A stretch of DNA of 64,000 bases from Nitrososphaerota archaeon. Its GTDB lineage: Archaea > Thermoproteota > Nitrososphaeria > Conexivisphaerales > UBA164. The position numbers and the translations under genes were made by a program. The stretch is taken from positions 392-64,391 of the forward strand of contig JAMCTX010000003.1 in NCBI GenBank assembly GCA_023381255.1. Direction: 5' to 3'. This document shows, piece after piece, positions 1 to 16,278 of the stretch (the stretch's first letter is position 1; each line of letters starts with the position of its first letter). The notes beneath the pieces are model-generated. The model had not been told where the DNA came from, did no database searches, and was given only the letters and a program-made list of their open reading frames with translations.

Positions 1-2
1 TG

Positions 3-257
3 AACATACCTATTGTATCGGGGAAAGCCGGACTCCCACCAAAACTGGGCTCGCCAGTCCCAGAAAAGTCCGGTATGGCAGGAAGGGAAGTGCTGCTGGA
101 GCAGAGCTGCGGCTCGCATGACAGGCCAACAATTACGGGGATGCTGATTAGCGAGGACAGGGAATTCTACACAATCAGGGACGGGTTTCAGGTGCAGCTC
201 ACGTTGTCAAAGTCCAAGTGGAGGATAGTAGGATTGATCAAGGATGAGGTGTTCTAG
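3..257 (+). CDS. hypothetical protein, 5'-truncated by window edge
   Basis: Frame 3 is open from nt 3 to the TAG at 255-257, so the listed 75-257 ORF is only its Met-initiated tail. Overlaps the next ORF by 14 nt. No motif recognised. Confidence 0.3.
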   Translation, partial: NIPIVSGKAGLPPKLGSPVPEKSGMAGREVLLEQSCGSHDRPTITGMLISEDREFYTIRDGFQVQLTLSKSKWRIVGLIKDEVF

Positions 258-1035
258 GTTGCAGGAAGCGCAGGAAACCACTGGAATTGAGGAGCTCCTT
301 TCGCTTGCCAAGGAGCTAATTGCAAAGCACGGGAATAATGCAGGGGCAATAACCGCGCTCAAGAAGCTGGTTTCGGAGCAGTGCGACAGCAAAGTGATGT
401 ACGAGCTTGAGCACGGGGACTACGAAAGCGGGCAAAAGTTCGACGCCATATACGGGGAAAAGAGCACCTACGCCACTACAGTGATAATAGACAACCTCAA
501 GAGGAGGCTTCTGGAGCACGGATACACGGCCACCATCGCAGCGGAGGAAACATCTGAAGTTGGCAGGTACGACGTTGTCATAAGGTCAAACGGGAACGGG
601 AGCTGCTCAATATACAGCTCCGGGGCGGAAAAGGTCAGGCTTGAAATAAAGGCCGCGGAGGGGATGCCTCTGGAGCAGATAAGCAGGTACCTATTTGACA
701 GGTCGTCGCTTGTCGTGGTCAGGGTGCTTCTCGGGGATGTGTTTGTCCTTCGCTATGCCGATGTCAGGCAATACGTCAAGTTTTTGGTGGAGCTGGAGAC
801 CAGCAAGGTGAGGAGGCTGCTGGAGGGCAAGCCAGTCCTCGTTCCGGGATACCAGTGCTACGACTGTCCAAACACATCATGCACTTACAACAGGGTCAGG
901 GTCCGTTCAGTGCCGTTCATCAAGCCAAAGGACCTGGGCTGGGACCTGAGCGTATTCTTCAACAACCTGCCTGGCGTTTCTGAAAGGACGGCGGAGCTTG
1001 TGATAAAGGAGCTGGAGAGGCAGGATGGCGCTTAA
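244..1035 (+). CDS. putative PD-(D/E)xK nuclease, RecB/Cas4-like with four Cys
   Basis: Ordered motifs: N-terminal Cys (SEQCDS), GRYDVVI (D), RLEIKAA (ExK), EQISRY (QxxxY), C-terminal CYDCPNTSC (CxxCx4C). Stop overlaps the start of the downstream transposase ORF. Confidence 0.45.
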   Translation: MRCSRLQEAQETTGIEELLSLAKELIAKHGNNAGAITALKKLVSEQCDSKVMYELEHGDYESGQKFDAIYGEKSTYATTVIIDNLKRRLLEHGYTATIAAEETSEVGRYDVVIRSNGNGSCSIYSSGAEKVRLEIKAAEGMPLEQISRYLFDRSSLVVVRVLLGDVFVLRYADVRQYVKFLVELETSKVRRLLEGKPVLVPGYQCYDCPNTSCTYNRVRVRSVPFIKPKDLGWDLSVFFNNLPGVSERTAELVIKELERQDGA

Positions 1036-2104
1036 GAACAGGGAACAGCGGGGAATAGAGCTGCTAAGGGCTGGAGCAGTCAGCGAAATTTCCCAGTCGG
1101 AATACATAGTCAAGTCTCAGTCAGCTGACACAAAATACAGCGTAGCCTGGAAGGGCAACAGGTGGACTTGCACCTGTGAGGATTTTGTCAAAAGCGGGAA
1201 AAAGTGCAAGCACATTTACGCCGTGCTGTATTTCAAGACAATGAAGGGCGTTGTGCTTGAGCAGAATCACCCAGAAGGCGACGCCAAATGCCCGAGCTGC
1301 AGGTCAGCTGATGCCGTCGTGAAAAAAGGTTTCAGGTACGGCAAAGGCAATCCTGTGCAGGTGTATTTTTGCAAAAGCTGCGGAAGGAAGTTTTCAAGGC
1401 CGGGCGTTGACGAGAAGGCAGGTTATATTGTCATGAACGCTCTTGACCTTTATTTCAGGGGGCTCAGCCTGCGCCAGACCGCGGAGCACCTTGAATCTGC
1501 ATTCAGGGTGGAAGTATCCCCTTCAACGATCTTAAGGTGGATCAGGAAGTATACCGAAATAGCCGACGCTTACATGAACGGGGAAAGGGGGGAAGGAGAA
1601 AGATGGGGTGCCGACGAAACTGTGGTAAAGCTGAACGGCAGGAAGGTCCTGTTCTGGACGCTGCTTGACGAGGATAAGAGGTTCCTCATAGCCGTCAAAG
1701 TGTCGCAAAAGAGGGATGCCGTGGAAGCTGCTGAACTGTTCAGGGATGGACTTAAGACTGCTAAGCAGCCCATGGAGGTGGTAACAGACGGTACCCCCTT
1801 TTACCCAGAAGCTGTATCCGAGGTTCTGGGCGGAGAAGAGCTGGTACACATAAGCGGACCTGGCCTGACATCAATGGTAAACAACAACAAAGTGGAAAGG
1901 CTCAATGGCACGTTCAAGAAAAGGGTGCGCCCGATGGGGGCGTTCAGGAGCTATGAAACAGCAAGTGCATTTGCAAAGGACTTCAGGCTATACTACAATT
2001 ACATAAAGCCCCACCGTTACCTGAAAGGCATGACGCCAGCTCAGGCATCCGGATTCAGCAGGAGGAAACTTGGCTGGAAGGACTTGCTGCCGCACAATTA
2101 TTAA
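1025..2104 (+). CDS. IS6-family-like DDE transposase with N-terminal SWIM zinc finger and zinc ribbon
   Basis: SWIM CxCxnCxH (WTCTCEDFVKSGKKCKH). Zn ribbon CPSC...CKSC. IS6-type DDE signature WGADETVVK...VVTDGTPFYPEAV...NNNKVERLNGTFKKR. Confidence 0.75.
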   Translation: MALKNREQRGIELLRAGAVSEISQSEYIVKSQSADTKYSVAWKGNRWTCTCEDFVKSGKKCKHIYAVLYFKTMKGVVLEQNHPEGDAKCPSCRSADAVVKKGFRYGKGNPVQVYFCKSCGRKFSRPGVDEKAGYIVMNALDLYFRGLSLRQTAEHLESAFRVEVSPSTILRWIRKYTEIADAYMNGERGEGERWGADETVVKLNGRKVLFWTLLDEDKRFLIAVKVSQKRDAVEAAELFRDGLKTAKQPMEVVTDGTPFYPEAVSEVLGGEELVHISGPGLTSMVNNNKVERLNGTFKKRVRPMGAFRSYETASAFAKDFRLYYNYIKPHRYLKGMTPAQASGFSRRKLGWKDLLPHNY

Positions 2105-3230
2105 CAAAGTTTTCTAAAGTGACGGTCTTTTTCTGCCTTCCTTTTTGCCTTTCTGTGGGTATGGGTGCGTATATCTCTGCATTTTCAATCAGCTGCCCCC
2201 AGCTTTCAAATTTAACGCCAAATGCAGATTCCATGGGGTTTTTTCCGCCAATCGAGTCGAGCTCCATGAAAAAGTTGTAGTAAACGCGCACCAGGCTCAG
2301 AAATGTTTTGAAAATATCCAGCGAATAGGATTTATGCTTGTTCAGAGACTCACGTAATGTTCTGTTCAGGCGCTCTATCCTGTTTATGTGTGACATATCT
2401 TTCTTTTTGGATTTTGACCACAGCCTAACCCTGAATTTATCTTTTGCCACTTCGTATGCAGGCAGTCCGTCAGTTCTTAATATTTTTCCCTTGATTGTGG
2501 TGGTGTGTTTCTCAACAATTTTAAACACCTCAGTTATTGTGTTCTCATTTCTATCTTTGCTTACATAGGTTGCAATAATAACATATGTAACTGGATCGTA
2601 TACAACAAATGTCCACACGTGTGGCTTTTCCCTGCCATGGTCAACTGGGTCATCCTTTTTTAAAATTGGCTGGTACTGCTCACCCGCCTCCAACTCTGTA
2701 ATATCTATTCTGAGTTTTCCGCTGTTATATTCAAAATTATCTAGAAGTTGTGCAATGTACTTTAAGATAAATATGGCCTTTGATCTGGACAATTCAACCC
2801 CAGTGGATCCCTTTACATCCTTTATTGCCCTCCTTAAATTACCAGAGTTGATGAAAGATTTTAACAGCGTCTCAACAGCATCCCTATTATAATTATAAAA
2901 CAAATTGAAAACCGAAAATTTATGGCCCTTTTCGCACTCATAGATTTGTACTTTGCCATGTTTTGTTTTCCTAAAGCCTCGCAATTTTTTGATTTCTGCA
3001 TTGCAAATTTGGCCATTAGACAAAACAACAGTGCAATGAGGAGTTACATGCAGCAGGTCTCGAATTGGCACAAATTTTTTGTGTTTGCCATTAAGCCTCG
3101 AATTTTTAACTCTACCGTCGCCGGTTGAGCTGCAACTTAGAGGCCTCATTGCCCTGTTGCTCATCGGGGGCATGAACTCGAACAGGTTTGTTTGATTTTC
3201 GAGACCTAGCTCCATATTTATCGCCTCCAT
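2055..3230 (-). CDS. divergent IS6-like transposase homologue (first catalytic Asp apparently replaced)
   Basis: ILRTDGLPAYEVA and HINRIERLNRTLRE align to the IS6 D and E motifs. The position of ADET reads AGEQ. The 3' end overlaps the convergent transposase gene by 50 nt. Confidence 0.55.
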   Translation of the reverse strand: MEAINMELGLENQTNLFEFMPPMSNRAMRPLSCSSTGDGRVKNSRLNGKHKKFVPIRDLLHVTPHCTVVLSNGQICNAEIKKLRGFRKTKHGKVQIYECEKGHKFSVFNLFYNYNRDAVETLLKSFINSGNLRRAIKDVKGSTGVELSRSKAIFILKYIAQLLDNFEYNSGKLRIDITELEAGEQYQPILKKDDPVDHGREKPHVWTFVVYDPVTYVIIATYVSKDRNENTITEVFKIVEKHTTTIKGKILRTDGLPAYEVAKDKFRVRLWSKSKKKDMSHINRIERLNRTLRESLNKHKSYSLDIFKTFLSLVRVYYNFFMELDSIGGKNPMESAFGVKFESWGQLIENAEIYAPIPTERQKGRQKKTVTLENFVNNCAAASPSSQVSSC

Positions 3231-4000
3231 AAAATTATCGTGCCGTCGTTCTGTTGTTTAGATTCCCTGCTTAGAATTGCTAGCCATGTGCCTACCTTCG
3301 CCACATATTCTGCCGGCTCCATAAAGTCGGGTTCTGCGAGGATAACTGCCAGGAACAGGGAGTCCGCGGGCAGGACGTCCCTGGCCTTTTGCTTTAACGG
3401 TGTTAGATTGATTATATGCATAACATAGCTTCTTTACTTAGCTACATATCCGGATTTATGCCGAATTAATGCCCAAAAAACCCGAATCGTGCCGAATTTC
3501 CGGCTCAAAAACCCAAAATTACCTAAACATTTTTTAGTCACGCACCAACTTATCTTTGTAGCGCCATTCTCTGTTTTGGTGTTGCATATTATTATACTAT
3601 ACACAACCACGCCGAACTCAATGCCTCTAATTTAATCACTCCTATACCGCTAAACATTTGTTCTGTAACATTTTTTACTCTCTAAATTGTGCTGCATTGA
3701 ATAATACTCATAGAAGAGTCAAATCCCCCTGCGACTCGCGCCAATCTAGCCGCGGCAGTTTACACGGGGATGGTTTGGAGCTGGATTATTCAGCACAGCA
3801 TAAGGGAGCATGTTAGAGCACTTATGTCAAACGGTATAGTGTCTTTATTCATCGTCAACAATTACTCGCGGCAAGCTTTTTTGAGATTATAAATGCGTGA
3901 TCTTCAACGCCAGTTATTGAATGATGCCAATTGCCGCATAGTTGAAAAACTCAATTTAGCGTGAAAAATTTATAAATAATACGGCATATTAAATTTATTA

Positions 4001-5413
4001 TTGGAACCCGAGAATGTAGACGCAGATACCCAAGAAAGAATAATTAAAGTTTTGGCTGAAGATCCTGAAATAAAGCGCGCTGTCATAGCTCTTAAAATAG
4101 GCAGATCCGCCTCTACAGTATCATCAAATATTAAAAAAATGATAAAAAATGAAAGGATCTTTAAATATAAATACAAAAACGAAGATGGTGCTGTGCGAAA
4201 AATATATGTCCCATCTGAAGTTCTGGCTAAACCATTAGAAACTGGTACACTAAAAATCAATAACATGAAGATTTGGAGCGGCGGTCCTTGGATTTTTCTT
4301 CAAGTTGAATCTAAAGATGTATATGAAAAATGCGACATTACTTTAAATATTTCATCTAAAGGGGGCTACATAGGGAAACAGGTGTCATGGGAATGGGGGA
4401 AACCAACCCCAGAAAAGGAATCGTATACAAATGTAATTGAAGACATAAAGCTGATAGATATCAATTTAAAAAGGATAACGACAGGCGAAGGAAAATTTCT
4501 TCCGTTGAATACCCTTTTGTCAGGCAAATTTATAATAAATATTTCACTAAGTAAGTTAACAAGAGAAGGCATGACAGAATATAAATCAATAAACTACTAT
4601 GGCATTGAAGACGAAAAATTTTACACTTTAATTCCCATAGCTGAAACGGAAGAAGAGTTGAAAGGTATCTTAACTTCTGTTAAAGTTTTCAAAATACCCT
4701 ATGAATATCATTTCCTTAAAATTATTGCATCAAACGCTGATAATTTAAATATGCTAAGTTTAGCAGATCAACTAAAAAATGACATGCTGGAATATTTACA
4801 AGATAAAAAATATATAACAATAGACCCTTTCAAGTTAACAGATGAAGGTGAAAAACGTTTAGAAGAAGGGGAGAGACTTGATGTATTTAAAACCATAGAA
4901 ATAAATGCGGATTCGGTAAAAAAAATTGGCAGGGGCTGCCATAAGGACGTTAATCCCGTGCCTTCTTGGATAGCTAGCCTGAAAGCACCTTTTATTGCGG
5001 ATCTGGTGTATTTTATTAATTTTATGTGGCCTAATTCAAAATATAAAAAATATTACGAATTCCTGTACAGGGTCTTTTTTAATAGTTGCATCAACGCAAA
5101 TGTTTTAAAAGATGCCATGGAGAAATGGAGATATGTCCAAAAATGCAAGGAATTGTCTTTTGATTATAACTTGGCAGTTGACTTTGAACTATCAACGGAA
5201 ATAGCGAACAAGAATAAGGATTGGATTCAAATTATTAAAAAAAATCATTTCGATTCATTAAAAAAGGATGCACAGAAAGTTTCATCAAACACTTTTAGTG
5301 ATGCGCAGCTTCTTAAACTCGCTATATGGCTTAGTTTAAAAAATTATGCTATGGGAAATGTTGAACAGATGTCGATGGAATCATTAAATGAAGGTGTAAA
5401 CTGTTTAAAATAA
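4001..5413 (+). CDS. hypothetical protein with N-terminal and internal winged-helix-like segments
   Basis: Long AT-rich ORF with K/N/I-rich product. HTH-like IALKIGRSASTVSSNIKKMI near the N-terminus and a MarR-like stretch LEYLQDKKYITIDPFKLTDEGEKRLEEG. Start codon uncertain (TTG at 4001). Confidence 0.45.
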   Translation: MEPENVDADTQERIIKVLAEDPEIKRAVIALKIGRSASTVSSNIKKMIKNERIFKYKYKNEDGAVRKIYVPSEVLAKPLETGTLKINNMKIWSGGPWIFLQVESKDVYEKCDITLNISSKGGYIGKQVSWEWGKPTPEKESYTNVIEDIKLIDINLKRITTGEGKFLPLNTLLSGKFIINISLSKLTREGMTEYKSINYYGIEDEKFYTLIPIAETEEELKGILTSVKVFKIPYEYHFLKIIASNADNLNMLSLADQLKNDMLEYLQDKKYITIDPFKLTDEGEKRLEEGERLDVFKTIEINADSVKKIGRGCHKDVNPVPSWIASLKAPFIADLVYFINFMWPNSKYKKYYEFLYRVFFNSCINANVLKDAMEKWRYVQKCKELSFDYNLAVDFELSTEIANKNKDWIQIIKKNHFDSLKKDAQKVSSNTFSDAQLLKLAIWLSLKNYAMGNVEQMSMESLNEGVNCLK

Positions 5414-5472
5414 TTGGTAAGGAGACAAAATTCACATTAAAAAGTGCTCAAATATAGCTGCAACAGTAATTA

Positions 5473-6747
5473 TTACAATGGCCCCTTCACTATTGCTTCA
5501 TCATTGGGCAATGCTGCTACAAATTCGAACCCCTTTGAAAGATATGCCTTGATCTCCTCAACGGGTATAACAACCTGCCTGCTGGCAGAGGCCCCAAACA
5601 GCTTTTCCCTTATCATCTTCTGGATGTCCTTGTCATTCATGTTAGAGATGTCAAGTGCATCAATCTCTTCATCTGTGTACCCAGAGATCTTTAACAACTG
5701 CCTCTTTAGTTCTGCTTCAACCTGCGCCTGGTCGAGAGCCTCCTTCTTGAAAGTCTGCAGGAGGTCGCTGGACTTCCTGAAGCTCTCCCTCATTTCTTCA
5801 ATCAATTCCTCGGGCAGCCTGTGCTTGTTCGTTGTGTACCTGTTCTCTATGTCTCCTTTGTGCCCCATGAAGAACGACCTGTAATCCCTGAGCATGTACC
5901 CCCTGGATTCGGCTATCATGAGCTGGGTGTCAAAGTAAGACCTCAGAACATAGGGTCTCAAATTAAAGCCAGCGGTTTTTATTGCCTTCCTGACCATCCT
6001 GCTTATGTTTGTGGTTGTTATGTGGAACCCGCCATTTTCCCTGCCTGCATCCTTCTTCGCCATTATTACAGGCGTGTCTTTGCCTATACTTTCCCCCTCC
6101 CGCATCCTTGATTCCAGGTACTCGCTTACGTACTGGCAGCCCTCCTCCGTAAGGAATGTAAAAAACTCATGCCCTGCCTTGCTGAGGGAGCTCCTCACCC
6201 TGACAATTGCGGGAATTTTGCTGAACGTAACTTTCTGCGAATCGATCACGATCTCCGGCAGGTCTCCTACCTTAAGGCCGTCAGTCCCGTCATAGTTGCC
6301 AAGAACCTCCGGCCTCAACCCTGAATGAGCCATAAACACGCAAGCGGTGCGCTGCCTGAGGTCGGCAGAAAGAAATATCCTCCTCAGCTCCTCCCTTGTG
6401 GGCACCTTTTCCTCCTTAAGCGTAGGCGTTTCCTGCGCCCCCCTTATCTTTATTTTTCTGTTTACCTGAATGTCGTTGTACGAAAGCCAGGATTTTATTG
6501 CCTTTAATGAGGAGCTTATGTATCCACCAGCCTTTCCCTGCTTCTCCATTTCAGTTACCATGTCAAGCAGCAAATCGTATATCCGCTTTGATTCTAGCGA
6601 AGCAAGCTCCCTGGGGGTTATCTTGCTTGACCTGCAGAATGCAGCCAGCCTGCGCAGGTAAACATCAGCCGTTATTTTGGACCCCCTGGCAACGTTGTCG
6701 TGCCACCTCCTGACATTCTGGTCGTTAAGGAGTTCGCTTGAGCTCAT
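5473..6747 (-). CDS. tyrosine recombinase / integrase
   Basis: Catalytic-type motifs AHSGLRPEV (R), LRSYF (xxR), GHKGDIENRY (H...Y). Located next to the tRNA 3' end. Confidence 0.85.
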   Translation of the reverse strand: MSSSELLNDQNVRRWHDNVARGSKITADVYLRRLAAFCRSSKITPRELASLESKRIYDLLLDMVTEMEKQGKAGGYISSSLKAIKSWLSYNDIQVNRKIKIRGAQETPTLKEEKVPTREELRRIFLSADLRQRTACVFMAHSGLRPEVLGNYDGTDGLKVGDLPEIVIDSQKVTFSKIPAIVRVRSSLSKAGHEFFTFLTEEGCQYVSEYLESRMREGESIGKDTPVIMAKKDAGRENGGFHITTTNISRMVRKAIKTAGFNLRPYVLRSYFDTQLMIAESRGYMLRDYRSFFMGHKGDIENRYTTNKHRLPEELIEEMRESFRKSSDLLQTFKKEALDQAQVEAELKRQLLKISGYTDEEIDALDISNMNDKDIQKMIREKLFGASASRQVVIPVEEIKAYLSKGFEFVAALPNDEAIVKGPL

Positions 6748-6799
6748 TAATGCCGTTTAGGCATTAGCGGTATATATAGGTTTCGAATAATAATAAGAG

Positions 6800-6886
6800 C
6801 GGGCCCGGTGGGATTCGGACCCACGACCCTCGGGTTAAAAGCCCGATGCTTTAGGCCTAATGACTGCCTGCCTGAGCTACGGGCCC
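6800..6886 (-). tRNA. tRNA-Lys (anticodon UUU) with a 13-nt insert in the D-arm (candidate non-canonical intron)
   Basis: Hand fold: acceptor GGGCCCG/CGGGCCC, D-stem GCTC, anticodon arm TCGGG-CTTTTAA-CCCGA, T-arm GTGGG-TCCGAAT-CCCAC, discriminator G. It is 87 nt long and becomes 74 nt if TCATTAGGCCTAA (6851-6863) is removed, which also restores the GAGC D-stem strand. Confidence 0.75.
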
Positions 6887-7515: not shown

Positions 7516-8721
7516 TTAGCTCATGGCTTCTTTTATGCTGTTTTCGGTTAATTTGAAGAGCCTTTTTATAGTAGAGTACGTGGGAACCGATGAAATTGTA
7601 AGGAGGCCAGCTATAAGCAACAATATGATCGGAATAGGGAAAATTTGCGACAGTAAACCATAAACAACTGCCATGACAGGCGATGCACCGGCCATGAATA
7701 TGGTAGTCACCGAGTTAACGCGGCCCAGCACTTCATTAGGGATAATTTTAACTAAATATGACATTAGCGGTATATTTGTCAGTGAATTTACAGTTCCCAG
7801 CGGCACCATAACCAGGATGTCTCCATATGGGACCCGGCTTACAGACAGAACAAAGAATGACAGCCCAAAAAATGCTATGGCCGATGCAATAAATGTAGGG
7901 TTTTCTAGGCGTTTGCTTATCCTTACGCCAAGCAACCCGCCCATCAGTCCGCCAATGGAAAAACTGAGCACAAAAAGGGTGTAATATGAAGGGCCAACAT
8001 GCAGTACCTTGTAAAATAAGCCAGAGGCATAAACCTCAAGAGAAATAAATAATCCGTTAATCAGCAATCCAATCAGTAAAAATGGCAAGATCATTTTTAT
8101 TGCTTTAAATACATGTGAAAATCCGTATTTTATTTTGGGCTTTTTCATGCCATGCTCAATTCTGGGGATGCTGAAAATTACAGAAGCGGCACTCACCATT
8201 ACCACGAGAGGCACAAATTTGTCCGTAAGTAATATTATTGACATGCCTCCAAGCGCTATTCCAGCTATTTCTGAAATTCCCCTCCCGGCTTCGACAAGCG
8301 ACATTCCCCTGCCCATGGAAGATGAATTCACTGTATCTTTCATCAAGGTAAAAAAGGCATCAGAGGTTATGCTGGAAAAAACCGATGACGTCATGGCGGC
8401 CGCATATACCCACAGGAGCGCCTGCGAAAAAAATAATGATATATATACTGCCATGATAGCCAGGGAACTGATGAACATAACCATTTGCCTGGGAAACCTG
8501 TCAAGTATGTAGCCCTCCGGTAGCAGCACCAGCAAGTATCCTGCTAGGGAAAGCGTAGGTATGAGGCTGACCAGAAACACGGAATTATATTTTACCATCA
8601 GAATCCACATATAGTAAATGTAAAACATAATTGATGTAAGCCTGACGAGGTTGCGGCTCATAAAGAACCTTAAAAAGGAAGCTCCCAAATTGTTGTGCAT
8701 ATTATCATCCGGATTATACAT
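7516..8721 (-). CDS. MFS transporter
   Basis: Very hydrophobic 401-aa product with multiple TM-like segments. MFS motif-A-like loop GYILDRFPRQ. Confidence 0.7.
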   Translation of the reverse strand: MYNPDDNMHNNLGASFLRFFMSRNLVRLTSIMFYIYYMWILMVKYNSVFLVSLIPTLSLAGYLLVLLPEGYILDRFPRQMVMFISSLAIMAVYISLFFSQALLWVYAAAMTSSVFSSITSDAFFTLMKDTVNSSSMGRGMSLVEAGRGISEIAGIALGGMSIILLTDKFVPLVVMVSAASVIFSIPRIEHGMKKPKIKYGFSHVFKAIKMILPFLLIGLLINGLFISLEVYASGLFYKVLHVGPSYYTLFVLSFSIGGLMGGLLGVRISKRLENPTFIASAIAFFGLSFFVLSVSRVPYGDILVMVPLGTVNSLTNIPLMSYLVKIIPNEVLGRVNSVTTIFMAGASPVMAVVYGLLSQIFPIPIILLLIAGLLTISSVPTYSTIKRLFKLTENSIKEAMS

Positions 8722-8775
8722 GTAATTATCGCTTATACATAAGCTTTATTATTATATATAGTTTATCATTAAAAC

Positions 8776-9357
8776 ATGACAAACGAGCCTTCTGGAGTTC
8801 TCTTAAAAGCATTTAAGAATCCAACGAAGCTGGCAATAATAGCGTTGCTAATGAAGAATGGGCAGATGACGGTAACACAGCTTTCAAAGTTAACAAACAC
8901 AACAAGGCCAAACCTTTACAGGTCAATTAAAGAACTGGTAAAAGACGGTGTAATTCTTAAGCCCCGCATAAAAGTCAAGAAAAATTACGTAGAAAAGTAC
9001 TATGAACTTAACCTGAAAATATTTGACAGCGTGAAAACAAGCCATATGATGAAAGCAATAGGCAGGGCACCCGCCTCTGACTTAAGGGAACTCATGATAT
9101 CATTTCTGTTTATGAATTCTCTTCTTTCAGGCGTTTTTGCTGAGCAAATAAAAATGGCTTCAGATGATGAAGTGGAAAGCTACAGGCAAAAAATACTCGA
9201 TGAATCAATACTGATGTCTTACTCGACGCTTTCTGTAAATGAGATAAAAACATTTTCAAAATATTTTGATCAATTTATAAACCAGCTGGAAAATAAGGAA
9301 AAAACCAATGAAAAAGAGGAGCATATGCTTGTAGTGCTTTCCCTTCCGCTTCACTGA
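8776..9357 (+). CDS. ArsR-like winged-helix transcriptional regulator with C-terminal extension
   Basis: N-terminal KLAIIALLMKNGQMTVTQLSKLTNTTRPNLYRSIKELVKDGVI is a typical ArsR/wHTH stretch. Divergent from the MFS gene. Confidence 0.6.
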   Translation: MTNEPSGVLLKAFKNPTKLAIIALLMKNGQMTVTQLSKLTNTTRPNLYRSIKELVKDGVILKPRIKVKKNYVEKYYELNLKIFDSVKTSHMMKAIGRAPASDLRELMISFLFMNSLLSGVFAEQIKMASDDEVESYRQKILDESILMSYSTLSVNEIKTFSKYFDQFINQLENKEKTNEKEEHMLVVLSLPLH

Positions 9358-10121
9358 GCCGTATAGCCGCCGTCAACGACAACCTCTGAGCCCGTCATAA
9401 ATGATGAATCGTCCGAAAGAAGAAATATTATTACGCTAGCTATTTCCTCGGGCTTCCCAAGCCTCCCCAACGGGTGCAGCTTTTTAAGTGCTTCATAAGT
9501 AGCTTCCCTGTTTCCGGTGCTTTCAGCAAAACCTGAGACCATGGGCGTATCTATGAAACCCGGATGAACAGAATTAACCCTGACATTGTATTTCGCATAA
9601 AATAGCGCGTCGGTCTTTGTCATCAACCTAACCGCACCCTTTGATGCGTGATAGGGCGGAGCATCCTGTGCCCCGACAAGCCCGTATATTGATGAAAGGT
9701 TAACTATACTTCCGCTTTGGTTCCTGATCATTGATGGTACGGCATACTTCGTGCACAAGAACACGCCGTTCACGTTTATACTTATTACTTTATTCCACTC
9801 TTCAAGTGTTATTTCATGAGTTTGCTTGCTTACCCCTGCAATGCCTGCATTATTGACAAGGCCATATATATCGCCAAGCTCTTTTTCTATTCTGCTGAAC
9901 GCTTCCTTTATTTGGGATTCATTTGAAACATCCAGTGAGTAAAATTCTGCCTTTCCGCCTGACCCTTTGACCTCGTCAACTGTTTTTCTACCCTCAACCT
10001 CATTTATGTCGCACACTGCAACAATCGCACCTTCCTTTGCAGCCGCCACCGCGGTTGCCTTGCCTATGCCCATGGCTGCGCCAGTTACTATGACGACCTT
10101 CCCGGCCAGTTTTCCGCTCAT
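9351..10121 (-). CDS. short-chain dehydrogenase/reductase (SDR)
   Basis: TGAAMGIGKA (TGxxxGxG), NNAG, YHASKGA (YxxxK). Confidence 0.85.
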   Translation of the reverse strand: MSGKLAGKVVIVTGAAMGIGKATAVAAAKEGAIVAVCDINEVEGRKTVDEVKGSGGKAEFYSLDVSNESQIKEAFSRIEKELGDIYGLVNNAGIAGVSKQTHEITLEEWNKVISINVNGVFLCTKYAVPSMIRNQSGSIVNLSSIYGLVGAQDAPPYHASKGAVRLMTKTDALFYAKYNVRVNSVHPGFIDTPMVSGFAESTGNREATYEALKKLHPLGRLGKPEEIASVIIFLLSDDSSFMTGSEVVVDGGYTAQ

Positions 10122-10172
10122 ACGGTTAATTGTGCAGAGCTATTACATACGCATTTCCTTAATTGTAATAAA

Positions 10173-11360
10173 TTACGAATTGAGCCTTTCACCAGAAGCT
10201 TCGAAAACTCCTCTTCCCTTGCCGGTTTCTGTTCCCCATTTTAGCCAGCTAAGTGCAGCAAATGAACCACAGATCCAGGTGCCAAAGGCTACATCCATAT
10301 ATACTCCAAATCCTAGCCTGGGCAACAAAAGCTCCATCGGGACCAGAGCGCCTATAGTTATTGAAGATACAAGTGCTGTATATGTTGCCCTTATGCTGGT
10401 TGGCCACAATTCGCCGTTAAGGGTGTTTACGGACATATACAGCACCGATATAAAGCCATTGTATAATATAAAAGGAACCAGAAGCGAGCTGATGTTATGA
10501 ACCCAAAGTGAGGAGGTAAGGTAAATAAAGGCAAAGGTTGCAGTTCCTCCAATTGATGCCATTGAGAGCACAATCCTCCTTGAAAACTTGTCAAGGAAAA
10601 TCGCAGATATGCCGACTGTTGCCTCTGTTGCGTTGCCTAAAAAAATGAGGAGAGAGGTATAATGCGGGAAAAAATACGGCCCCAATGCGCTTACCATCAG
10701 GTTGAACCCGACCACCTCAGCTAGGCTTATTACTATAACCACAGCCAGCCTGAACCTTATAGAAGGCCCCCTCATTGTAGACCCATGGTCCTTGACCGCC
10801 TTCCAGATCTTTGACTCTTTAACTGAAGGTCTGCTAGCCAGAACCGACATCAGCATCACGGTCATTATTAAAACTACAGATTCCCTTTGTATTAAAACCG
10901 GGCTGTTACCTATTATTAACAACAAAAGCGCGGCTATTGCACCGCCAACATTTATAAAATTTAGTTCAAGCAGCATTACAGTGCCTCTGAAAGGCGATTC
11001 AAAAATTTCATGCGTAGATGACATTATGGATGAATATTCACCACCGGCACCAATAATGAGAAATGCCAGCGCAACAAATATTGCATCAACGCTGCCAGAA
11101 CTAGCAAATATTATATCCCCTACCGTAAGGAAAGCGAGGTTAAAATAATAAGATTTCCTCCTGCCCATCACATCAGATACCCTTGCGCTGCTAAACGCGC
11201 CGATGGTCATCCAAAGTGGAGCCCACGCCACCATCAGCGTTAGGTAGTTTATGCCAAGCCTGAACCACTGTGTGACTAATGGTGATAGAGTAAATATAAA
11301 AGAAGTGAGCATCATGCCCATGCTGAAAGTCAAAAAATGGGTTCTGTTTTTTGCTCGCAT
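10173..11360 (-). CDS. MFS transporter
   Basis: Hydrophobic 395-aa product. Motif-A-like SDVMGRRKS. Confidence 0.65.
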   Translation of the reverse strand: MRAKNRTHFLTFSMGMMLTSFIFTLSPLVTQWFRLGINYLTLMVAWAPLWMTIGAFSSARVSDVMGRRKSYYFNLAFLTVGDIIFASSGSVDAIFVALAFLIIGAGGEYSSIMSSTHEIFESPFRGTVMLLELNFINVGGAIAALLLLIIGNSPVLIQRESVVLIMTVMLMSVLASRPSVKESKIWKAVKDHGSTMRGPSIRFRLAVVIVISLAEVVGFNLMVSALGPYFFPHYTSLLIFLGNATEATVGISAIFLDKFSRRIVLSMASIGGTATFAFIYLTSSLWVHNISSLLVPFILYNGFISVLYMSVNTLNGELWPTSIRATYTALVSSITIGALVPMELLLPRLGFGVYMDVAFGTWICGSFAALSWLKWGTETGKGRGVFEASGERLNS

Positions 11361-11428
11361 GCAAATTTTTAACCCAAGATGTATATAGCGTTATAGATAG
11401 TTATTGTGGTTATATCTGGCGTATGTAA

Positions 11429-11734
11429 TTAAAGTTGCCCTTCCAGTACGCGTTTAACCTTGTATTCCATGGTTTCATCCTTGTCCCTCCTGTCGTCTAT
11501 CCTGACAGTAGTAACAATCCTCTTAACGCCAGCTTTGTAAACTGCATCGTGCACCGCAGTTATTACACGGCCAAGCTCATCTGTATTTTCAAGTTCAATG
11601 CACGTCCCCATTGGGCAAACTTGAAATTTCACGCCCATATTTTTTATGGTCTTTACTGCTTCAACTATTATGTTTCCAGCTTCCGTAGATGATGTCCCAA
11701 TTGGATCTACAGCTATTTCAACTATTACTGTCAT
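11429..11734 (-). CDS. MTH1187/YkoF (UPF0045) family small protein
   Basis: 101 aa. Pattern IAVDPIGT...VCPMGTCIE...RIDDRRD is typical of this family. Confidence 0.65.
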   Translation of the reverse strand: MTVIVEIAVDPIGTSSTEAGNIIVEAVKTIKNMGVKFQVCPMGTCIELENTDELGRVITAVHDAVYKAGVKRIVTTVRIDDRRDKDETMEYKVKRVLEGQL

Positions 11735-11884
11735 AAATTTGCTTTTACTAGGCCGATATTTAAATCAGCTGATTAATATTTTTGCATTATAAAGAAAATC
11801 CAGAATGTGGAAGCCCGTTTGAATGAGGCATTAAAATGCATGTATAAGCTTATATATGAGAATTTGGATGTACATTCGAGGAAA

Positions 11885-12187
11885 ATGGATGATTTCGAAC
11901 CATTTGCGTATACAAATGAACTGATACCTGAAGAAATAAACAAAGAAACCGTAAAGATCTTGGTTAAGCTTGAAAAGAGAAAGTATAACAAGCCAACCAC
12001 CATTGTGCAGTTCAATGATACGCAGGGAATCAATATAGTGGACGTTGCTAAGAACCTGAAGAGAAAGTTAGCTTGTGGCGGTGCAGCAAAAGGCGACAGC
12101 GTGATCCTGCAGGGCGATCACAGGGATAAGGTTGTAAAGGACCTCATAGATTTGGGGTTCAAGCAGGAGAACGTAGTTGTGGAATGA
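11885..12187 (+). CDS. sui1: translation initiation factor aSUI1 / eIF1
   Basis: C-terminal KLACGGAAKGDSVILQGDHRDKVVKDLIDLGF is the SUI1 signature. The ORF opens at 11807, and the Met at 11885 gives the usual length of about 100 aa. Confidence 0.8.
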   Translation: MDDFEPFAYTNELIPEEINKETVKILVKLEKRKYNKPTTIVQFNDTQGINIVDVAKNLKRKLACGGAAKGDSVILQGDHRDKVVKDLIDLGFKQENVVVE

Positions 12188-12381
12188 AATTCAGCTGGAA
12201 ATCGCCGCTGGAAATTAAAAAACGGTTATGTCCTGTCTGCGGAGCTGAGCTCAAGCCCATAACCTCGCTAGGTGCTGCAACTACACCCCAGTACTTTTAT
12301 TGTGAAAGATGCGGTTATAAGGGCGTTGTGTATATAGAGTTGCATAATGGATCCAATGGAACTGATACGGAAAGCAGTTAA
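12184..12381 (+). CDS. small zinc-ribbon protein
   Basis: CPVCG...CERCG four-Cys ribbon. ATGA overlap with the SUI1 stop. Confidence 0.45.
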   Translation: MKFSWKSPLEIKKRLCPVCGAELKPITSLGAATTPQYFYCERCGYKGVVYIELHNGSNGTDTESS

Positions 12382-13015
12382 TGATGGGAAGATACCAGAA
12401 GAATACGAAAAAAAGGCAGAGCTTGGCGTATCAAAGGTCACAGATGCTATAGGCAAGGTTGAAAAATCGTCAGGAGCCAAGTATCCGGTATGGTTTGTAT
12501 CCCCATATGCTGTAGTTATGAAGGGAGGAAATCTGTATTCTGAAGCCATAGTATATTCCAGATTTATGCCGCTAAGCGATGGCACAAACCTCATACTAAC
12601 TGTCGAGTTGACCGCGCCACTTGTAGCTTTTGGCTCCAAGGATACAATTGCTTCAGCCGTGGCTCACGAATTCCTGCATTACCTTAATTTTTTAGCACTC
12701 TTGAGGGATAGGACCATTAGAAGTTCCAGCATAACTGACCAGGTAATAGAAGCGCTTGGCATTGACGAGGGCGAACTCTACACAGCCGATTTGGTCTATT
12801 CAAAAAGCAAATACCTAATCAGGGTTCTCGATGAAAAATTTAGGGACGGGCTTAACGACGATGCGCTTAACAAAAAATCCATTGTTAAATGGATAAATGC
12901 AGGCCTCCCCACCGTTATTATGTCACCTTCGGAAAATCAAGTAAAGCTGCCCATGGTTGCCATAATGAATTATATTCCAGAAGAAAGGGTCAGGCGCCTA
13001 TTAAAATGGACATAG
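12347..13015 (+). CDS. hypothetical protein with HExxH motif (possible metallopeptidase)
   Basis: AVAHEFLHY contains HExxH. Overlaps both neighbouring genes (35 nt and 10 nt). Confidence 0.4.
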   Translation: MDPMELIRKAVNDGKIPEEYEKKAELGVSKVTDAIGKVEKSSGAKYPVWFVSPYAVVMKGGNLYSEAIVYSRFMPLSDGTNLILTVELTAPLVAFGSKDTIASAVAHEFLHYLNFLALLRDRTIRSSSITDQVIEALGIDEGELYTADLVYSKSKYLIRVLDEKFRDGLNDDALNKKSIVKWINAGLPTVIMSPSENQVKLPMVAIMNYIPEERVRRLLKWT

Positions 13016-14586
13016 AGGCTACCCGCAAGGATATAAGCGGCATACTAGAAGGCGTAATACCGGAGGCAATTGCGCTTTACGGGAGTCAGGTGGCTGGATA
13101 TGCCAAGCCGGACAGTGATTATGATGTGCTTGCTCTGGTCAATGGCCTGAACGGCAAGCTCAGGTATATATATCAAAAGGGGCAAGCCGCCGAGTTTTCG
13201 GTTCTTCTTGTGGATGTCAACGAAGCATTAAAGGATGCCGACCAGGCATCAATGGGCGAATTTGTGGCAGGAAGGTTGCTTAACCCGTTCATTCCGATTT
13301 ATGGAGAAAATACTGTGAAAGACTTGGAGGTAAGGTACAAGGAAAGGGTGATCAGAGAAGAGTCCTCTGAGCTTTTTTCCCAGTACGGATACTTTACCTA
13401 TCATCTAAACATCCCTTTACACTACTTCCTATTCTCAAGGCTTAAAAAAAGATACAGAATTTACCCTCCGGCCCTTTACAGTTATGCAATGACCTATTCT
13501 GAAGAAAGGATGGGCAAAAATTTAGAGATGTCGATTCCAGGCTTCAGGCAAGCTGCTTCAAGAATTGATTATCTTGAGTTAAAGGGCGATGCAGTCAGGA
13601 TAAAGGATGGTTCTAAAATAAATGCGATGCCCCTTAGGGACGATTTTGAACTTTTTGAAAGGGCAGTCAAGCAGTACATATTTCACGGCATAAGCGGCAA
13701 GGTTGGACCAGATGTTGTAGTGTCAGAAGCGTTGTCAAAGATAAAGAGAAGGAGAACGATTAAAGCGGTGAACCCTTACCTGAAAAAACCTGAGCTTATG
13801 CTTGTGATTGAAGGTGTCCACCTGCTTTATAGTGGTTCACCTGAGCGCGAATTCTTTGGTTCAGGCGCACTCAGCAGCGGGATAAGGCAGTCAGTGGGGT
13901 TAAAGGTGGGCACCCTAAACGGTAAAAAATATGTCATAAAAAGGTTCACTGGCTCCAAGCACTTAAAGTGGTACTTTTTAGGCATGATCGGGCGCCCAAT
14001 AAAACCATTTGATGTTTCACCGCTCCAGAGGATGTACAATGAATATTGCGGAACCATGGAGCTTGAGCGGATGGGGTTCAGAGTCCCAAGAATAGAAGCA
14101 GTTTCCGTTAAAAGGCCTACAATAATAAAAGAATACGTTGAGGGAGAAACAGTGTTACATGGGATAAAGGCCTTTTTCAGGTCGGGGTCTGATGGCGAAA
14201 TAATAACCGGAACAGGGGAACTTTTGCGACGGCTGCATGATAGGGGGGTTGTGCTGGGTGATTCAAAGCCGGAGAACTTTTTGGTCAATAAAGAAGGCAT
14301 ACACCTGATAGACCTTGAGCAGAGCAAGATCAACGCCTCAGTACAGGACAAAGGGTGGGATGTTGCCGAATTCCTTTATTATTCGCTTTCATTTTCAGCA
14401 AAGAAGGAGATGGCAATCAGATTTTATGAACTTTTTTTCAAGGGTTATGGAAATGATAGAAGCGTGTTTCAGGAAGCTGTAGCTCAGAAATATTCCGTCC
14501 CGTTTCTGCTGATTACGAGGGCAGACATGCTCAGCTATTACAGGGATACACTGTTGAAATTCTTAAATGCCAAAGGAGAGCAGTAG
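13006..14586 (+). CDS. fusion protein: N-terminal nucleotidyltransferase-fold domain + C-terminal ePK/RIO-like protein kinase domain
   Basis: NTase motif LYGSQVAGYAKPDSDYDVLALV (GS...DxD). Kinase catalytic loop LGDSKPENFLV and IHLIDLEQS (DFG-like). The ORF opens at 12889, and the Met at 13006 is the likely start. Confidence 0.6.
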   Translation: MDIEATRKDISGILEGVIPEAIALYGSQVAGYAKPDSDYDVLALVNGLNGKLRYIYQKGQAAEFSVLLVDVNEALKDADQASMGEFVAGRLLNPFIPIYGENTVKDLEVRYKERVIREESSELFSQYGYFTYHLNIPLHYFLFSRLKKRYRIYPPALYSYAMTYSEERMGKNLEMSIPGFRQAASRIDYLELKGDAVRIKDGSKINAMPLRDDFELFERAVKQYIFHGISGKVGPDVVVSEALSKIKRRRTIKAVNPYLKKPELMLVIEGVHLLYSGSPEREFFGSGALSSGIRQSVGLKVGTLNGKKYVIKRFTGSKHLKWYFLGMIGRPIKPFDVSPLQRMYNEYCGTMELERMGFRVPRIEAVSVKRPTIIKEYVEGETVLHGIKAFFRSGSDGEIITGTGELLRRLHDRGVVLGDSKPENFLVNKEGIHLIDLEQSKINASVQDKGWDVAEFLYYSLSFSAKKEMAIRFYELFFKGYGNDRSVFQEAVAQKYSVPFLLITRADMLSYYRDTLLKFLNAKGEQ

Positions 14587-14646
14587 CTAAGCTTAAAAAT
14601 GAGCCTGATGATGGTAGTTTGCATGAGGCAGGTTTATAATCCTCTA

Positions 14647-14952
14647 ATGAAGCGCATAGAGATTGAATATCTATTTAATAATATGAACGGCAAGCTAAGC
14701 AGAAAGCAAGCAGTAGAACAGGTATCAAAGGAGCTTGGCAAGCCAGCCGACAGGGTTTTTCCCATAAAACTTGAGGGTAAATTTGGGTCAACGGATGTTA
14801 ATGGGTTGTTTTATGCCTATGATGACCTTTCAGTATCAAAGTTGCAGTTAAAGAAATACCATTTGTTGAGGCTGCTTCCAAAGGAAGAAAGGAAGAAAAT
14901 ACAAGAAGAGAAGAGGAAAAAGAAAAGCGAAAAGAAGGTTGAGCACAAATGA
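14647..14952 (+). CDS. rps24e: ribosomal protein S24e (eS24)
   Basis: About 101 aa, with the basic tail [15 protein letters not shown], in the conserved S24e-S27ae gene pair. Confidence 0.75.
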
Positions 14953-15113
14953 GGGGTAAGCCCGTTCAGGTCTATAAGCTGTACAGTGTAGAGGGGAGCG
15001 TGGTCAAGAGATTAAGGAAACCATGCCCCAAGTGTGGCAACGGCACCTTTTTAGCACAGCACAAAAACAGGCTTACATGTGGCAAGTGCGGATATACAGA
15101 ATATCTTTCATAA
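14949..15113 (+). CDS. rps27ae: ribosomal protein S27ae (eS31)
   Basis: 54-aa ORF missing from the track (<60 aa): [12 protein letters not shown]...[31 protein letters not shown] overlap with S24e. Confidence 0.8.
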
Positions 15114-15119
15114 CGCGCG

Positions 15120-15365
15120 TGCGAGCCACTTCTCAGCTGAAGACTTGGGGCTTTTTCCCATAACTGCCTATATCTGCTTTTAGTGATATAATCAATACAG
15201 GCTCGAAGTGGCAATCTCTTGGCATAGATTCGGAAAGCCCTATTTTCATCATGTCGAACTATGTTTATGGTAGCATTCAGGTCCCTGTTTGGGCGCACAC
15301 GTCACAATGGTATATCCGATCCGACAGTTTCAGGCAATACGGCAGAAATAAAATATAACCGTTAT
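15120..15365 (-). pseudogene. C-terminal remnant of an IS200/IS605-family TnpB gene plus right-end region
   Basis: The minus strand encodes ...LKLSDRIYHCDVC (15295-15327), then after a frameshift NRDLNATINI (15260-15289). This is the TnpB Zn-finger / DRDxNAAxNI terminus. No upstream RuvC part remains. Confidence 0.5.
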
Positions 15366-15432
15366 TGTTTAGTTTTGCAATATTTGAACGATTAACGATT
15401 AGCTTTTATACAAGATAGTGGCAGTTTACAGC

Positions 15433-16278
15433 ATGTCATCCAAAGAAATATCTGAAATATTTAAGGTTGGGCAGGAATTGCTTTCAAGGGGAGAACCCTT
15501 TGCAATAGTTTCCGTTACTGAATATAAGGGGCACAGTTCAAGGCATGAAGGCGCTATGATGCTAGTTAGGAAAGACGGCACAATAGCTGGAACTGTTGGC
15601 GGGTCTGTGCTTGAAAAATATTCAATAGAAAAGGCGCTTGAATACATGAAAAGCGGAAAAAACGGCATAATTTCCATTGAATCAACAAGTGAGCTGGGCA
15701 TGCTCTGCGGGGGGGCCGTTACCCTGTACATAAAGTCAATTCCAGTTCCCGATACACTGATAATATTTGGAGCAGGGCACGTAGCTTATCAGTTGAGCAA
15801 ACTCGCGTCTCAGGTAGGGTTCAGGATAATAGTCGTGGATGACAGGCCAGAATGGGCCAGCAGGGAGAGGTTCCCTGAAGCTTCGGAGATAGTTGTGGAA
15901 AAACCATCTGCCGCCGTCCAGAAGCTGCCCAGCGGAGATAACACCTATGTTACAATAATGAGTTATTCTGGCGACATAGAAAAGGAGGCACTTAAGTCGA
16001 TTCTTGATAAAGAATACAGGTACATAGGATTGATAGCAAGTCCTGTAAAGGCTATACAGTTTCTTGATTACCTTTCCGCATATTATAGCCTTGAAAAGTT
16101 ATCCAGGATAATATCACCTATGGGGCTTGATATAGGAGGCGGGGAAGAGCCTGTTGATGTTGCAATGAGCATCGTCGCCGAACTGCAGATGATAAGGCAT
16201 GGTGCTACCGGCAGGCAACTGAACAGGGTGCCCGAACTTATTGCAAAACTAAATACAAAGCAGCAACTTAAAGCCTAG
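15433..16278 (+). CDS. XdhC/CoxI family accessory protein
   Basis: FAIVSVTEYKGHSSRHEGAMMLV...GTVGGS in the N-domain. Rossmann-like LIIFGAGHVAYQLSKLA...VVDDRPEWA. Confidence 0.75.
   Translation: MSSKEISEIFKVGQELLSRGEPFAIVSVTEYKGHSSRHEGAMMLVRKDGTIAGTVGGSVLEKYSIEKALEYMKSGKNGIISIESTSELGMLCGGAVTLYIKSIPVPDTLIIFGAGHVAYQLSKLASQVGFRIIVVDDRPEWASRERFPEASEIVVEKPSAAVQKLPSGDNTYVTIMSYSGDIEKEALKSILDKEYRYIGLIASPVKAIQFLDYLSAYYSLEKLSRIISPMGLDIGGGEEPVDVAMSIVAELQMIRHGATGRQLNRVPELIAKLNTKQQLKA

Follow-up and report, generated by a model that had tools for sequence, protein, structure and literature searches.

The window analysed here is a stretch of 64,000 nucleotides (nt) from a Nitrososphaerota archaeon (assembly GCA_023381255.1, contig JAMCTX010000003.1, positions 392 to 64,391 of the forward strand). 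Its source is a metagenome-assembled genome (MAG) of 1.28 Mb that is 85% complete, and the window begins 391 bases into this contig, contig 3. At its left end lies a block of open reading frames (ORFs) in which a first-pass annotation had seen a Cas4/RecB-like nuclease gene coupled to a transposase gene of the IS6 insertion sequence (IS) family. We analysed this gene pair, its relatives in other archaea and the genes around it. The features on which the argument turns are the following, in window positions:

244-1035, plus strand: ORF1, 263 amino acids, a predicted Cas4/RecB-like PD-(D/E)xK nuclease with catalytic D110, E134 and K136, a QxxxY motif at residues 145-149, and cysteines C47, C205, C208 and C213.
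1014-1020, plus strand: GGAGAGG, a Shine-Dalgarno-like stretch read from the sequence, inside the 3' end of ORF1 and 4 nt before the ATG of ORF2.
1025-2104, plus strand: ORF2, 359 amino acids, with a SWIM finger (residues 40-69), a CxxC...CxxC zinc ribbon (about 88-124), a helix-turn-helix (HTH, about 135-185) and an IS6-type DDE domain.
2055-3230, minus strand: ORF3, 391 amino acids, an IS6-like DDE paralogue with zinc ribbon, HTH and DDE domain and without a SWIM finger; its DDE matches are weak.

An exhaustive HMMER search placed ORF1, for which one gene caller chose an alternative TTG start at 259, in a family of 113 cluster representatives. In a 50-sequence alignment of this family, C47, D67, E101, D110, E134, K136, R160, C208 and C213 are invariant, and F66, G107, Q145, R148, Y149, R191, G202 and C205 are at least 90% conserved. 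Every motif that the first-pass annotation had listed as a RecB/Cas4-type series in the right order is thus invariant or nearly so, which rules out a chance series. The D, ExK and QxxxY motifs follow the RecB order and align onto the Cas4 motifs. The four-cysteine arrangement, one N-terminal residue plus a C-terminal cluster, is present as well, with the triad spaced C205xxC208x4C213, that is, CxxCx4C and not CxxCx5C. No relative of ORF1 was found among the viral contigs scanned, and there was no plasmid match. With at least 113 clusters, this is a new protein family that present annotation leaves as 'hypothetical'.

The sole positive family-level match for ORF1 came from a profile-profile comparison with Cas4. 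We aligned 24 PF01930 genes taken from genomes of the same phylum and compared them with the ORF1 family profile using hhalign, which returned a probability of 70.7, a P value of 3.8e-5 and a score of 40.2, and which paired D110, E134-K136, Q145-Y149 and the CxxC in register with Cas4. By contrast, none of the controls (a DDE alignment, the Cas4 alignment in reverse and 20 Cas4 alignments with shuffled columns) scored above 16.8 or exceeded a probability of 0.2. It is by this route that the PD-(D/E)xK assignment made in the first-pass annotation has gained profile support. ORF1 is not a PF01930 member by that family's own threshold: at the curated thresholds of PF01930 and PF12705 it is not recovered, the window protein has no match to either at E <= 1, and one of the 50 family members matches PDDEXK_1, at 0.018. 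We also built an AlphaFold2 (AF2) model of ORF1 from a 12-sequence alignment (predicted local distance difference test, pLDDT, 80; predicted template modelling score, pTM, 0.75), a single-sequence model having reached only pLDDT 37. In this model D110 precedes a strand, the next long strand carries E134-K136 and the helix after it Q145-Y149, an order that puts these residues at the core positions of a PD-(D/E)xK fold. PD-(D/E)xK, Cas4, Exo5 and Dna2 entries also dominate the Foldseek lists for the model, though no entry is at E < 1e-3.

The series of N-terminal cysteine, D, ExK, QxxxY and C-terminal cysteine triad is the one found in Cas4 and the other iron-staple RecB-like nucleases (PF01930/COG1468, AddB, Exo5, Dna2). 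The likeness to Cas4 extends to the in-register profile match, to the PD-(D/E)xK-type core predicted in the model and to a position beside an integrase- or transposase-type enzyme. However, ORF1 falls below the Pfam and NCBIfam thresholds, its triad has the shorter spacing, and it possesses an additional, helical N-terminal part (about 90 residues, with the conserved F66-D67 pair) and a long C-terminal helix. Its family is partnered by a DDE transposase, TniQ or a SWIM protein rather than by Cas1-Cas2, and no cas genes lie nearby: none of the six ORFs in window positions 1-6747 (3-257, 244-1035, 1025-2104, 2055-3230, 4001-5413 and 5473-6747) has a cas-family match, and the window's own genome has no PF01930 match. 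Solo Cas4 and Cas4 borne on mobile genetic elements have been surveyed (PMC5704561), and the words 'transposase', 'SWIM' and 'IS6' are absent from that phylogenomics paper. Collectively, these data indicate that ORF1 is very probably a divergent RecB/Cas4-type nuclease with an iron-staple-like four-cysteine arrangement.

ORF2 had been described as combining a SWIM finger, a zinc ribbon and a complete IS6-type DDE domain, and the family searches agree. It matches SWIM (PF04434, 5.5e-8) and DDE_Tnp_IS240 (PF13610, 1.2e-21) in Pfam and NF033587 transpos_IS6 in NCBIfam, the last at 127.7 bits, just over the cut-off of 125; residues D197, D255, E291 and K298 are intact. At least 403 homologues were recovered at E <= 1e-10, labelled 'IS6 family transposase' at their source, from Nitrososphaeria, Conexivisphaerales, Bathyarchaeia, Archaeoglobus, Ignisphaera and Jordarchaeaceae. 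Among plasmid sequences, ORF2 is closest to long clostridial IS6 elements of the ISCpe7 type, with 32% identity from residue 88 on. Like this long clostridial clade (clade h of PMC7986276), ORF2 lies over the NCBIfam IS6 cut-off and has an HTH-DDE-K/R core with an N-terminal zinc ribbon, whereas the SWIM finger is additional to it. Reviews of the IS6 family describe single-ORF elements, with one passenger-carrying exception, ISDsp3, and mention neither SWIM nor a coupled nuclease (PMC7986276, PMC6807381). A full-text literature search on archaeal SWIM-IS6 transposases found nothing relevant.

The stop of ORF1 (at 1035) and the ATG of ORF2 (at 1025) overlap, as the first-pass annotation had it; the overlap measures 11 nt and together with the GGAGAGG stretch is consistent with translational coupling of the two frames. 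Homologous nuclease-transposase pairs likewise overlap or nearly abut (4 nt in L014, 20 nt in L057, 26 nt in L060 and a 4-nt overlap in L065; loci other than the window are designated by L numbers). ORF1, ORF2 and the small gene before them, ORF0, have a GC content of 51-54%, compared with 40% for ORF3, 31% for the left flank and 45.7% for the whole window, so that the segment is indeed richer in GC than its surroundings.

To follow the pair from the transposase side, we sampled eight ORF2 homologues with 36-48% identity, seven of which had upstream DNA present. An ORF1-family gene lies directly upstream in six of these seven, usually overlapping, with hidden Markov model (HMM) E-values of 8e-14 to 2e-70 (L055; L057; L060, Archaeoglobus; L063, Bathyarchaeales; L064, Jordarchaeaceae; L065, Ignisphaera). 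The six thus come from Nitrososphaeria-related archaea, Bathyarchaeales, Ignisphaera, Archaeoglobus and the Asgard family Jordarchaeaceae, and the recurrence of the pair as a unit in other archaea, which the first-pass annotation had marked for survey, is established. In the seventh locus, L068, the upstream slot is occupied by a 403-residue DUF2130 protein (2784-3995; 2.9e-8) in place of the ORF1 family. DUF2130 is listed as a PD-(D/E)XK family (Steczkiewicz et al. 2012, PMC3424549), and on this assignment L068 represents a non-orthologous replacement within one nuclease superfamily. That this slot is filled by a different PD-(D/E)xK nuclease argues strongly for a functional need for a nuclease there. 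These data show that placement of an ORF1-family gene upstream of SWIM-IS6 transposases is near-obligate, usually with overlapping frames, across archaeal phyla. Within the large archaeal SWIM-IS6 clade, the nuclease is the rule and not an oddity of the window locus.

Two of the sampled loci have features of their own. The ORF1 homologue of L055 (2796-3766) appears split into overlapping frames at 2796-3284 and 3101-3766, which indicates a frameshift or an assembly error, and a SWIM-only gene of 200 codons lies between it and the transposase. L068 has a Cas6 gene and a Cas3-like gene 2-3 kb downstream.

The conserved unit comprises three to five genes in about 3.2-3.8 kb, as against a single ORF and about 0.7-1.8 kb in the IS6 family. 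Its third gene in the window, ORF3, converges on ORF2 with a 3' overlap of 50 nt and is 26% identical to it. A convergent ORF3 homologue directly follows the SWIM-DDE gene in L018, L055, L056, L057, L060, L064 and L068; in L014 it is convergent with one gene intervening, and it was not found in L019, L063 or L065. The first-pass annotation had proposed an unusual two-gene mobile module. The pairing holds, but the two-gene size does not, the second DDE paralogue being usually included, and this copy is at most putatively mobile. In an alignment of 14 DDE sequences, the positions of D255 and E291 are invariant and that of D197 is kept in 13, the exception being the ORF3 of the window, in which the first catalytic Asp has become Gly (LEAGEQ versus VDE in all six homologues) while the remaining 391-residue frame is intact. 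The second DDE paralogue accordingly keeps its catalytic triad in six of seven copies. Loss of this Asp means that the window's second transposase is probably catalytically impaired, and we take ORF3 to be, probably, a non-catalytic or decaying partner.

The prevailing view of IS6-type transposases is that they act alone and yield only cointegrates. To our knowledge, Tn7 is the only well-studied DDE transposase that is paired with a PD-(D/E)xK nuclease. The archaeal pairing looks like an undescribed multi-gene transposition module, not a chance neighbourhood, and would represent a DDE transposon type with an accessory Cas4-like PD-(D/E)xK nuclease. Our favoured reading, for which we judge the chances slightly better than even, is that the nuclease is a subunit of a conserved archaeal IS6-like transposition module. 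In outline, such a module would consist of the nuclease and the SWIM-DDE protein, usually with the convergent DDE paralogue and often with a small divergent AbrB/MazE-like regulator. The nuclease would be made together with the SWIM-zinc-ribbon-HTH-DDE transposase, of the long IS6 type, through the overlapping frames. The DDE enzymes would bind the element ends, cleave the 3' ends and carry out strand transfer, and the nuclease would process the other strand or the flanking donor DNA, much as TnsA does with TnsB in Tn7 or Cas4 with the Cas1-Cas2 integrase. The outcome would be to turn the cointegrate-only chemistry of IS6 into complete excision or clean insertion.

The nearest precedent is Tn7, in which a PD-(D/E)xK nuclease gene (tnsA) also lies directly beside a DDE transposase gene (tnsB); in addition, members of the ORF1 family occur inside archaeal Tn7-like gene sets, beside TniQ. 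However, ORF1 has no PF08721 or PF08722 match and is of the Cas4/RecB type with cysteine ligands, not a TnsA homologue, and ORF2 is of the IS6 and not the Mu/TnsB type, with no TnsC ATPase in the window module. By analogy alone, then, ORF1-ORF2 may be functionally equivalent to TnsA-TnsB. Casposons with Cas4-like nucleases (PMC6563490) are likewise archaeal mobile elements that pair a Cas4-family nuclease with an integrating enzyme, which in their case is a Cas1 integrase accompanied by PolB, in contrast to the DDE transposases found here. If our reading is right, the pairing of a Cas4-like nuclease with a DDE enzyme in Thermoproteota, Archaeoglobi and Asgard archaea would mean that the problem of second-strand processing has been solved a second time, independently. 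It would also give a function to a 'solo Cas4-like' family and tie it to the Cas4-Cas1 partnership that underlies CRISPR adaptation. A broader formulation is possible, which we put forward tentatively and as more doubtful than the subunit reading itself: that there is a widespread, undescribed class of archaeal heteromeric DDE transposons, in which a Cas4-like iron-sulphur (Fe-S) nuclease would be the obligatory catalytic subunit alongside a SWIM-IS6 transposase and a second DDE protein; that the TnsA/TnsB principle would have been invented there independently of Tn7; and that the nuclease module would have been exchanged between IS6-like and Tn7-like, TniQ-linked systems.

The link to Tn7-like elements is seen most fully in L022, a 398-kb contig (CAWFZY010000007.1) of a Nitrososphaerota MAG, in which the ORF1 homologue overlaps tniQ. 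The gene set at 7878-15513 comprises the nuclease, tniQ, a DUF5678 protein, a pair with a DTGA motif (aspartic-protease-like), an 888-residue TnsAB-like fusion and TniB. The last two lie about 2-3 kb downstream; the core of the fusion matches solved TnsB/TnsAB structures (1.9e-38), with a weak TnsA-like match at its N terminus, and the TniB ATPase was identified at 5.3e-46. In the TnsA-like N terminus the ExK position reads D-I-L by eye, and the domain may be inactive. A true TnsAB/TniB/TniQ set was seen only in this related locus. When ORF1 homologues are placed in a tree, the three members linked to TniQ group with the SWIM-DDE-linked L014 (support 0.92-0.95) and the deep branches are SWIM-DDE-linked, so that the TniQ association looks derived, with at least one switch of partner. 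Benler et al. 2021 (PMC8649781) detected no Tn7-like elements in archaea, and a 2025 preprint reports archaeal Tn7-family transposons, including tnsAB fusions (bioRxiv 10.1101/2025.07.27.667033). L022 has the tnsAB fusion, tniB/tnsC and tniQ described in that preprint, and differs in that an ORF1-family gene overlaps tniQ, as it does in three loci here; the words 'Cas4', 'nuclease' and 'endonuclease' are absent from the preprint's text. The position of the nuclease beside TniQ suggests an unrecognised accessory component of archaeal Tn7-like elements, which are of interest as programmable insertion tools.

A number of results weigh against a transposition subunit. Some concern the nuclease itself. 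Sequence and profile searches of Pfam, NCBIfam, PADLOC, PHROG and the PDB gave no sequence match to ORF1. The top PDB matches of its AF2 model in Foldseek are mostly PD-(D/E)xK proteins, among them the EcoR124I HsdR nuclease domain, Cas4 (8d3q_J), human Exo5 (7lw9), RecU, PA endonucleases and Dna2, and viral entries include a 'PD-(D/E)XK nuclease' and a 'Cas4-like exonuclease' with probabilities of up to 0.96, but none of these reaches E < 1e-3 and the TM-scores are 0.2-0.4. In the nucleases of L057 (2729-3514) and L064 (3192-3989), the D, the ExK and the Q...Y helix are kept and the C-terminal cysteine triad is absent, and Fe-S binding would therefore not be family-wide. A simple role as a TnsA substitute does not fit every context either, since L022 already encodes a TnsA-like domain, albeit a weak match. 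Finally, the family also occurs beside non-DDE partners or none. In a survey of 13 independent loci, which also gives the conservation of the pair as seen from the nuclease side, the gene directly downstream of the ORF1-family member was:

SWIM-DDE transposase: 4 of 13 loci (window, L018, L014/L023, L019).
SWIM and zinc-ribbon protein without DDE: 2 of 13 (L021, L070).
TniQ (PF06527): 3 of 13 (L002, L020, L022).
Zinc-ribbon HNH-HTH protein: 1 of 13 (L016).
Other or none: 3 of 13 (L015, L017, L071).

At 359 residues, the L016 protein (9277-10356) combines an HNH motif with several CxxC ribbons and an HTH at its C terminus; it follows a distant ORF1 homologue with a 4-nt overlap.

The other adverse results concern inheritance and mobility. 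Pairwise distances of nuclease and transposase are incongruent (Mantel r -0.28); the two have not been strictly co-inherited, and we rejected strict co-evolution. The module is single-copy in its own genome, and all contigs with identical proteins share one context, so that element boundaries cannot be read and no copy is seen to have moved. Neither a repeat search at the locus nor alignment of left flanks to the regions after ORF2 and beyond ORF3, in six loci, gave convincing terminal inverted repeats or target duplications. No ends were found that would exclude ORF1 from the element, then, but the search for IS ends prompted by the first-pass annotation found none at all; the GG-type terminal repeats (15-20 bp), 8-bp duplications and multiple copies of IS6 elements were not detected, and a motif scan found no IS26-type end. 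Three features bear on the ends of the element and of the island that carries it:

3458-3520, no strand: degenerate 31-bp units repeated in tandem, located before the minus-strand operon; as an operator or element end they are a candidate not above chance.
5473-6747, minus strand: a tyrosine-recombinase integrase (Phage_integrase, weak; phrog_1 integrase, 6.5e-9) of the island carrying the module.
6799-6886, minus strand: a tRNA gene adjoining the integrase, called by ARAGORN as an 88-nt tRNA-Ala(GGC) of odd geometry (L003 12541-12628 in a sister assembly).

The best inverted repeats, a 10/10 match and a gapped 15/16 match, are both at chance level. In the gapped match, contig positions 138-153, a site just after a gene for a 712-residue protein left of the window, face 3898-3912, bracketing the whole 3.8-kb block, and the right arm is the outer copy of the 31-bp tandem repeat. 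These candidate ends have no flanking target duplication, and comparable scores were obtained in every locus tested. We also rejected the outer repeat, ATTYKGG(N)GTTTTT, as an end signature: in the genome it occurs only at its two source sites, and as the pattern was derived from them, this uniqueness is circular. The tRNA gene is likely the attachment site of the island. Being single, island-borne and without detectable ends, and with the first Asp of ORF3 lost, the window copy is probably no longer mobile by itself.

Several of these points suit the most serious alternative, which we hold to be unlikely though by no means negligible. It takes the nuclease gene to belong to the backbone of integrated archaeal islands, whichever recombinase it has for a neighbour; the nuclease would process ends when the island is replicated or recombined, or would act in anti-defence, and would play no part in transposition chemistry. 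What follows a family member may be a SWIM-DDE protein, TniQ, a SWIM-only protein or an HNH protein, or the gene may face that of a tyrosine recombinase; integrase-bearing islands hold not only the window module but also those of L014, L015, L064 and L071; and the incongruent trees and missing IS ends point the same way. Against this reading stand the near-obligate linkage seen from the transposase side, where six of seven loci have the family and the seventh a PD-(D/E)xK substitute, and the overlap of the frames in most loci. Moreover, nearly all of the partners share the zinc-finger DNA-binding modules of transposition systems (SWIM, zinc ribbon, TniQ), which argues for a specific protein partnership and not mere co-residence.

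We consider it improbable that the two DDE paralogues and the nuclease make up a unit that has been domesticated and is not mobile, serving for instance in defence or DNA repair while islands carry it passively. A single copy without detectable ends is what such a system would look like, as is synteny that persists at protein identities as low as 24-54% (15-27% between the most divergent nucleases). The distribution is sporadic, with the module present in 7 of 401 genomes of the class, and the GC difference between ORF1-2 and ORF3 is kept within the genus, unlike in a recently spreading IS. Against domestication, none of the three proteins has a PADLOC match, full triads and typical DNA-binding domains are present in both DDE paralogues across the alignment (the window ORF3 excepted), and a bona fide Tn7-like gene set includes a member of the same nuclease family.

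Passenger genes differ from one related element to the next. That ORF1 is a mere passenger on an IS6-like 'transporter IS', its function having nothing to do with the transposase, is very improbable and already disfavoured by conservation: one IS6 element with a passenger, ISDsp3, is on record (PMC7986276) and ORF1 has no annotated function, but the same family, or a nuclease of the same superfamily, fills the same upstream overlapping slot across archaeal phyla.

The island has further cargo to the left of the window, visible in the sister assembly L003: the AT-rich gene for the 712-residue protein (3353-5491; PADLOC PDC-S05 match, 6.5e-6) and, before it, a frameshifted IS5-like DDE_Tnp_1 gene (2118-2845). 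A second integrase, 49% identical to that of the window's island, lies on contig C18 of the same genome (11748-12995) and suggests another related island there.

Three small genes complete the block:

1-257, plus strand: ORF0, 85 amino acids, with its ATG one base left of the window (contig 391) and a stop that overlaps the ORF1 ATG by 14 nt.
3218-3421, minus strand: an ORF of 67 amino acids whose stop overlaps the ORF3 start; it is called in other assemblies and has no family match.
Contig 176-352, minus strand: a small AbrB/MazE-fold gene just left of the window, divergent from the nuclease operon.

ORF0 is called as an 85-residue gene in four assemblies and has no match in Pfam, NCBIfam or PADLOC. 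We rejected the idea that it is a decayed SWIM protein, as it does not resemble the SWIM mini-protein that L014 has in this position, and an ORF0-like repeat upstream of the L003 IS5-like gene proved to be coincidence. No match to the defence-system protein models of PADLOC was found for ORF0, ORF1, ORF2, ORF3 or the 67-residue ORF. In three distant loci (contig 176-352 here, L055 2453-2629 and L063 2185-2337), a divergent AbrB/MazE-fold gene of 50-59 codons precedes the nuclease operon, and its product may be a regulator of the module.

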